Shown in pieces: positions 55,369 through 55,483 of a stretch of 64,000 bases of DNA. The notes under the pieces were generated by a model, which did not search any database, was not told the DNA's origin, and was given only the letters and a program-made list of their open reading frames with translations. A program made the position numbers and the translations under genes. This DNA comes from Ignavibacteriota bacterium (lineage in GTDB: Bacteria; Bacteroidota; Ignavibacteria; UBA10030; UBA6906). The stretch lies in the NCBI GenBank assembly GCA_963801355.1, contig CAWDEM010000004.1, positions 1,376,001 through 1,440,000 of the forward strand, read 5' to 3'. Numbering within the stretch: the stretch's first letter is position 1; every line of letters begins with the position of its first letter.

Positions 55369-55409
55369 ATACGCAATGTCGCACTCGTTCAAAGCAAGCC
55401 GTTTTCAAT

Positions 55410-55483
55410 GCTGGCGTAGCTCAGTTGGTTAGAGCACCAGATTGTGGATCTGGGGGTCGATGGTTCGAGTCCATCCGCCAGTA
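55410..55483 (+). tRNA. tRNA-His: tRNA-His(GUG), non-canonical: no G-1, G1:U72, A73; CCA not encoded
   Basis: Acceptor gctggcg/cgccagt+a, D-stem gctc/gagc, anticodon arm ccaga-ttGTGga-tctgg, T-arm gatgg-ttcgagt-ccatc. Confidence 0.95.

Follow-up and report, generated by a model that had tools for sequence, protein, structure and literature searches.

A probable G-1-less histidine identity pair, tRNA-His and its adjacent histidyl-tRNA synthetase, in a Bacteroidota/Ignavibacteriae-like genome

An extra nucleotide, G-1, is regarded as the nearly universal identity mark of tRNA-His. In the canonical system the G-1:C73 pair is encoded in the gene, kept by RNase P and read by histidyl-tRNA synthetases (HisRS) of the Escherichia coli/Thermus thermophilus type (available parts of PMC4357726). 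Within the motif-2 sequence E-R-P-Q-K-G-R of the T. thermophilus enzyme, Arg115 binds the phosphate of G-1 by salt bridges and its base by hydrogen bonds, Gln117 touches the backbone at 71–72, and a loop of the other subunit, 71′-RGGR-74′, also contacts G-1 (same parts of PMC4357726).

The model for histidine identity without G-1 ('ΔG-1') in bacteria is Caulobacter crescentus, one member of a group termed RRCH, for Rhodobacteraceae, Rhizobiales, Caulobacterales and Hyphomonadaceae (PMC3064791; PMC3937112). For the Caulobacter HisRS, the anticodon (a loss of 91- to 1000-fold) and U72 (91-fold) matter most, A73 matters less (3-fold) and G-1 brings no gain, and a first pair G1:U72 is specific to the bacterial group without G-1 (PMC3064791). 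At the position in the motif-2 (IIb) loop of the Gln that goes with G-1:C73, RRCH HisRS has Gly (PMC3937112, in its available parts). The trait has been interpreted as a synapomorphy with a likely single origin in bacteria (PMC3937112), and the available portions of a 2019 review (PMC6471195), a 2023 review of identity (PMC9976931) and two further papers (PMC5370408, PMC5389517) name only alpha-proteobacteria and their phages as bacterial G-1-less cases. The literature searched, available in part and with most subscription journals outside its scope, held no report of a G-1-less tRNA-His in bacteria beyond the alpha-proteobacteria.

Here we describe a tRNA-His gene with no encoded G-1, together with the HisRS gene beside it, in the window, by which we mean the whole 64,000-nt stretch of DNA that was analysed. 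The two very probably form a working G-1-less histidine identity pair. By analogy, this pair most likely belongs to the kind characterised in Caulobacter, and its mechanism would be the known one.

The tRNA-His gene and its surroundings

The features of the locus, in window coordinates, are as follows.

55339–55367, + strand: promoter-like site, TTGCAA-17 nt-TATCAT (consensus scan, 9/12 matches; a consensus match only)
55409, + strand: position -1 of tRNA-His, which is T and not G (sequence)
55410–55483, + strand: tRNA-His(GUG), the only tRNA-His of the genome (Rfam RF00005, ARAGORN)
55484–55519, + strand: 36-nt spacer between tRNA-His and hisS
55520–56974, + strand: hisS, encoding a 484-aa HisRS of the G-1-independent clade (TIGR00442, PF13393, PF03129, tree)
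55865–55882, + strand: motif-2 loop of HisRS, K116-P-D-P-G-R121 (alignment of 80 HisRS)
56828–56902, + strand: clade-specific insertion of about 25 residues (~437–461) in HisRS (alignment tails; limits approximate)
57000–58520, + strand: hutH, histidine ammonia-lyase (TIGR01225, 670.2 bits against a cut-off of 539.15)

ARAGORN calls a single tRNA in the window, tRNA-His(gtg), at 55410–55484, and Rfam model RF00005 matches 55410–55483 with 72.2 bits (E 7.6e-14; gathering score 29). The first-pass annotation had described a His(GUG) cloverleaf with T at -1, a first pair G1:U72 and discriminator A73, spanning 55409 to 55483. ARAGORN, RF00005 and the bases themselves confirm this description, and the 3′ end stands, but the start moves by one, 55409 being the -1 base and the tRNA proper beginning at 55410. 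As read from the sequence, the acceptor stem GCUGGCG/CGCCAGU gives G1:U72 and C2:G71 (the text of PMC3064791 prints 'C3-G71'), and the discriminator A73 lies at 55483. The next bases are CTCC, so that C74 is encoded and CCA is not; the CCA end would be finished post-transcriptionally. The D-loop is 9 nt long, AGUUGGUUA, with U20a. The same loop occurs in the phylum's canonical tRNA-His genes and so does not discriminate there, and U20a, considered as a discriminator of tRNA-His type, was rejected in the phylum on the same ground.

The genome, rated 100% complete with 0.14% contamination, carries 47 tRNA genes over all 8 contigs (4.8 Mb) according to ARAGORN, and a genome-wide search with that program for further copies of tRNA-His yielded none besides 55410–55483. 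A pattern that matches the 3′ half of tRNA-His and reports positions 72 and 73 finds exactly 1 site in this genome and 0 in the reversed control. Sequencing error, which the first-pass annotation had named as fatal to its reading, does not account for the U72/A73 ending, since dozens of further genomes have it too.

Two observations on other tRNA genes of this genome may be recorded here. Bases 1–7 of tRNA-His (GCUGGCG) are also those of tRNA-Thr(UGU) and tRNA-Thr(CGU), whose genes lie at C4:1031701-1031774 and C8:2047082-2047157, and the acceptor ends of tRNA-His and tRNA-Thr(UGU) differ at positions 72 and 73 only. With its default settings ARAGORN calls no tRNA-Asn anywhere in the genome, and only when the threshold is lowered does a tRNA-Asn(gtt) candidate without an intron come up, at C8:396234-396308 (-).

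Downstream, hisS starts 36 nt from the end of tRNA-His on the same strand, with no terminator-like site found on the + strand between them, and hutH follows hisS within about 25 nt. The hutH open reading frame (ORF) opens at 56925, but its start is probably 57000, because the TIGR01225 match begins near residue 29. The tRNA-His, hisS and hutH genes thus make up a histidine-themed unit. The promoter-like site lies about 43 nt 5′ of tRNA-His, and several relatives have a TATATT-like box 15–25 nt before theirs. We infer that tRNA-His and hisS are co-transcribed, probably from a promoter just upstream, and hutH is probably in the same transcription unit. The hisS-hutH order is found again in many relatives (loci L006–L035, L148–L150, L160, L032 and L186), including two genomes of the window's class discussed below, G089 and G457; at L186, from a genome of another class, it stands beside a canonical tRNA-His.

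The surroundings show further features. A perfect 20-bp palindrome, TTGCGTATCA|TGATACGCAA (55357–55376), overlaps the -10-like box upstream of tRNA-His; as a candidate conserved element it was rejected, since none of 11 relatives shows it upstream of tRNA-His. A stretch of lower G+C (0.54–0.56 at 44001–56000 against 0.58–0.61 in the rest of the window) has the tRNA-hisS pair at its edge. The 384-aa ORF at 54170–55324, just upstream of tRNA-His, has no Pfam or NCBIfam match and a single weak counterpart among the fetched loci of other genomes (L091, 25% identity).

Judged by its marker sequences, the host genome is not alphaproteobacterial, which bears out the non-proteobacterial host suspected at first pass. 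Among the best 120 relatives of its RpoB, all 10 named ones are Bacteroidota, Bacteroidetes or Ignavibacteriae metagenome-assembled genomes (MAGs), at 86–90% identity. Alphaproteobacterial tmRNA is two-piece; the tmRNA of this genome is not flagged as permuted by ARAGORN.

The synthetase and its clade

The hisS product scores 376.6 bits with TIGR00442 (cut-off 286.75), and hisS is the sole gene of the genome above that cut-off. The second tRNA-synt_His protein of the genome is HisZ (TIGR00443, 281.1 bits against a cut-off of 271.65) and is without the anticodon-binding domain. Among solved structures, the hisS product best matches 6nhi and 3net and then human cytoplasmic HisRS (1e-61), the E. 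coli and T. thermophilus structures being far weaker matches (1e-28 to 1e-31).

To place the enzyme, we built a tree of 80 HisRS rows (IQ-TREE, LG+G4, 1000 ultrafast bootstraps/SH-aLRT) from 80 species-genome loci, the window's class, other classes of its phylum, a control of 91 alphaproteobacterial genomes and canonical enzymes; L205, which comes from an unpublished genome, partial sequences and eukaryotic sequences were left out, no conclusion draws on the unpublished genome G536, and the tree is read as unrooted and as giving no direction of transfer. All 30 HisRS whose genome has a U72/A73 tRNA-His fall in one clade of 55 rows (support 100/99), in which the only row known to be linked to C72/C73 is the near-basal L085. 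The alphaproteobacterial RRCH rows form a subclade nested in this clade, with a Phycisphaerales-labelled MAG as sister (100/97), and, next to these, G457 from the window's class (100/99). The window HisRS lies in a different subclade (85/95) that holds its own family (100/99), family f4 (95/81), family f13 (100/100) and rows labelled Zixibacteria, Edwardsbacteria and Acidobacteriota, and it is about 40–48% identical to the alphaproteobacterial enzymes. Alphaproteobacterial HisRS paired with canonical tRNA-His form a separate clade (100/99).

Motif 2 divides along the same lines. The loop reads KP[D/G/E]PGR in 29 of the 30 U72/A73-linked rows and KLDPGR in the remaining one (G457), as against R[P/A]QxGR in 21 of 22 C72/C73-linked rows (the exception, L218, has RPGKGR); the motif-2 Gln is missing in 30/30 U72/A73-linked rows. 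The window enzyme has D-K-P-D-P-G-R and not the canonical E-R-P-Q-x-G-R, with Lys, Asp and Pro in place of Arg115, Gln117 and Lys118, and its loop is KPDPGR where the alphaproteobacterial RRCH rows have KPGPGR. It also has an acidic NPEEED where canonical rows have D[K/R]GG. An insertion near the C-terminal end of the anticodon-binding domain is common to the clade, RRCH rows included: 35–52 residues follow the KDL..G strand in clade rows, compared with 12–28 in G-1-using rows, and the only clade rows without it are L054 and L085. The alphaproteobacterial-type identity set that the first-pass annotation had recognised in the tRNA (no G-1, U72, A73) is thus matched by a HisRS of the RRCH clade (100/99) in which the motif-2 Gln has been lost.

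Several rows deserve mention on their own account. L085 is a CPR (Buchananbacteria-labelled) MAG near the base of the clade, with the HisRS loop RPQAGR and, downstream of hisS, a tRNA-His (L085:2899-2975) with C72, C73, an encoded CCA and C at -1; from these sequences it looks like the nearest G-1-type outgroup of the clade. L054, a Gammaproteobacteria-labelled MAG, has 2 tandem U72/A73 tRNA-His genes with differing acceptor stems directly upstream of hisS (L054:1290-1471). Finally, L203, L208 and L211–L220 represent a further alphaproteobacterial HisRS type, 34–41% identical to the window's, with an RPQ/RAQ loop and with canonical tRNA-His wherever a tRNA-His was seen.

Distribution of the pair

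The tRNA-His pattern matches in 122 of 141 sampled genomes of the window's class. Ten of these end in U72-A73, namely G000, G009 and G053 (own family), G089 (f4, a family of the window's order), five members of f13, and G457 (f58). The remaining 112 end in C72-C73, among the matches listed, and include the same-order families f2 and f3 and other members of f58. With the window HisRS as tblastn query and the type assigned at E ≤1e-82 (46–74% identity), the window-type enzyme is present in 14/141 class genomes: the ten with U72/A73 and four more of f13. Two of these four (G357 and G113) have a U72/A73 tRNA-His found by BLAST and ARAGORN; in the other two (G432 and G488), neither the pattern nor BLAST/ARAGORN recovered a tRNA-His. 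No canonical tRNA-His was seen in any of the 14 genomes with the window-type enzyme, and the window-type enzyme was found in 0 of the 112 C72-C73 genomes, among the matches listed. The same search gave weak matches to canonical enzymes in 6 more genomes and none at the threshold used in 121, and in one genome of the window's own family (G037) neither a tRNA-His nor a HisRS gene was found. The tRNA type and the enzyme type strictly covary. At the level of the window's family, the U72/A73-tRNA/HisRS pair is a trait of the lineage.

In a sample of 401 genomes from the whole phylum, the matches listed, all from other classes, have C72-C73 endings, bar a few that are not tRNA-His. Four of five genomes searched in these other classes carry a third HisRS type, 33–37% identical to the window's, which combines an RPQ loop with a canonical tRNA; in G258, the remaining genome, HisRS is of the usual bacterial kind. 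Fifty-nine canonical tRNA-His genes were fetched across phylum and class, and every one of them has G-1, C72 and C73. The patchy distribution within the class, set against this canonical background, agrees with the native pair having been replaced, perhaps through the transfer of tRNA and hisS as one linked unit.

A log-likelihood difference of 56 and an AU p of 0.053 suggest, at the level of sequence comparison, that G457 may have acquired the pair independently, with caution owed to its shared tRNA-hisS-hutH order and its long branch (0.97). The AU test of 'all class rows one clade', with p = 0.053 and a group named after the tree had been seen, falls short of formal proof of several acquisitions within the class. 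Similarity of tRNA bodies was likewise discarded as a test of co-transfer versus in-place change, which it does not separate: the window tRNA-His is about 0.77 identical to the canonical ones of its class and 0.74–0.78 identical to U72/A73 types of other phyla. Just 3 switches between the types suffice for a quick tRNA tree, but the molecule is short and kin share labels.

The pair extends well beyond the class. A single tRNA-His match, ending in U72-A73, is present in each of five genomes labelled Hyphomicrobiales, Zixibacteriota, Hydrogenedentota, Verrucomicrobiota and Acidobacteriota (phylum names here are the labels of NCBI records, and the sample groupings were made by the software). Sampling the phyla of two of them gave the following counts.

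Phylum of the Hydrogenedentota-labelled genome (n = 71): U72/A73 in 51, C72/C73 in 3, C72/A73 in 1, non-tRNA-His matches only in 2, no match in 14
Phylum of the Zixibacteriota-labelled genome (n = 51): U72/A73 in 14, C72/C73 in 18, non-tRNA-His matches only in 1, no match in 18

The C72-A73 gene (G635:C100:24462-24502, Hydrogenedentota-labelled phylum) represents a mixed state. In the alphaproteobacterial control, 91 genomes sampled from the class to which a Hyphomicrobiales-labelled MAG belongs, the pattern marks 6 genomes as U72/A73, all six of which have an RRCH-subclade HisRS, and nine genomes with another HisRS type have C72-C73.

Linkage of the two genes is recurrent. We scored hisS loci for an upstream tRNA-His, no more than 500 nt away and in the same orientation. 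The arrangement was present in 16/74 species-genome loci (6 of the 80 had no upstream DNA), 2/13 class loci and 2/12 RRCH alphaproteobacterial loci, about a fifth of clade loci having tRNA-His directly upstream of hisS, and in 0/27 loci with other HisRS types. Given this linkage, tRNA and enzyme could move together.

These data bear on the dispute over the origin of alphaproteobacterial HisRS. It is conceivable, with doubt slightly outweighing belief, that the G-1-less system is not an alphaproteobacterial invention and is instead a self-contained tRNA-synthetase identity unit, often with the tRNA gene immediately 5′ of hisS, that spread over many phyla and repeatedly displaced the canonical pair, RRCH being one nested offshoot from a wider pool. 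The picture of RRCH as an acquired offshoot draws on its nearest rows in the tree, the Phycisphaerales-labelled MAG and the genome of the window's Ignavibacteria class. If this were so, the 'exceptional' rule would be the one by which entire lineages decode histidine, for instance most of the genomes sampled in the Hydrogenedentota-labelled phylum. The system itself was already known; what stands out is its distribution outside the Alphaproteobacteria, with the same enzyme clade and tRNA type in a Bacteroidota/Ignavibacteriae-like genome, patchy in its class and common in other phyla, and the linked arrangement of the pair. With this distribution the exception becomes a widespread second rule. 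The distribution would offer a natural experiment, with many cases of the swapping of an essential tRNA-synthetase pair. Linked tRNA-hisS units would also be candidate orthogonal pairs for genetic-code engineering, the Caulobacter pair having already been shown to be orthogonal in E. coli (PMC3064791).

How the pair would work, and how it compares with known systems

We infer both the mature 5′ end of tRNA-His, at G1, and the determinants of its charging. RNase P, whose RNA is of bacterial type A in this genome (244.7 bits), would cut between T-1 and G1, as for every other tRNA, in which case G1 is the first base of the mature tRNA-His and the acceptor stem has the usual 7 bp. The adjacent HisRS has lost the motif-2 residues for G-1 and the 71–72 backbone and gained the insertion in its anticodon-binding domain, and it would charge tRNA-His through the GUG anticodon, U72 and A73, as its Caulobacter relative does. 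Its determinants may differ in detail, given the 40–48% identity to the alphaproteobacterial enzymes and the Asp in place of Gly.

The base at -1 is where another reading enters, in which RNase P cuts one base early and a retained U-1:A73 forms an eighth pair that replaces G-1:C73 as the identity mark. The T at 55409 is able to pair with A73, and T is the commonest -1 base of U72/A73-type genes, with 21 of 30 distinct sequences. However, the other nine have C (7, which would not pair with A73) or G (2), and their enzymes are still of the same clade. In this genome T or C precedes 43 of all 47 tRNA genes (T 24, C 19, A 4, G 0), so that T-1 is ordinary pre-tRNA context and not a conserved identity base, whereas the distinct canonical tRNA-His sequences, with G in 54 of 55 and C in one, show how a selected -1 base looks. 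Nor does the enzyme keep the set of residues by which an extra 5′ nucleotide is held. A retained U-1:A73 pair, which the first-pass annotation had listed as an alternative, is therefore improbable as the identity mark. Some U-1-bearing molecules may nonetheless arise, as T-1 could pair with A73 and a -1:73 pair shifts RNase P cleavage in E. coli (PMC3064791).

The same gene pattern, A73 without an encoded G-1, is that of eukaryotes, in which case a Thg1-like or other enzyme would add G-1 opposite A73 after transcription; the stronger structural match to human cytoplasmic HisRS than to the E. coli and T. thermophilus enzymes points the same way. Against this, the Thg1 family PF04446 has 0 matches in this genome despite its rated completeness, the only match among 14 control genomes being in Methanosarcina acetivorans. 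The HisRS moreover clusters with G-1-independent enzymes and shares their motif-2 change, and the first pair is G1:U72, specific to bacteria of the G-1-less group (PMC3064791). Thg1-type addition, also raised at first pass, is less probable still than a retained U-1.

That the pair is silent or accessory and a canonical one in unassembled DNA does the work, as the first-pass annotation had allowed, is hardly credible: the assembly is in 8 contigs and tRNA genes can be missed (tRNA-Asn goes uncalled at default settings), but the complete-rated genome has one tRNA-His, one HisRS and otherwise only HisZ, the 14 class genomes with the window-type enzyme are equally devoid of a visible canonical tRNA-His, and the hisS frame is intact and conserved, at 70–90% identity in many relatives.

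Our preferred reading, a G-1-less pair charged through anticodon, U72 and A73, can now be set beside the known systems. With the canonical pair it shares the GUG anticodon, the cloverleaf and a class II HisRS with equivalents of Arg120 and Arg122 (GRFR); it differs in being without G-1, C72 and C73 and in the changes Arg115 to Lys, Gln117 to Asp and Lys118 to Pro. The closest families of the window's order use the canonical system. Eukaryote-type identity combines A73 with a G-1 added by Thg1, and no Thg1 gene was found in the window genome. [quoted passage not shown]

The closest likeness is to the RRCH pair. Both have no encoded G-1, a G1:U72 pair, A73, a 9-nt D-loop and no Thg1, and both have a HisRS of the same clade (100/99) with the motif-2 Gln lost and an insertion in the anticodon-binding domain; in some alphaproteobacterial loci (L198, L200) tRNA-His also stands directly upstream of hisS. 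They differ in host, alphaproteobacterial as against Bacteroidota/Ignavibacteriae-like, and in enzyme subclade, with 40–48% identity and KPGPGR in place of KPDPGR, and the window pair, unlike that of RRCH, is linked to hutH.
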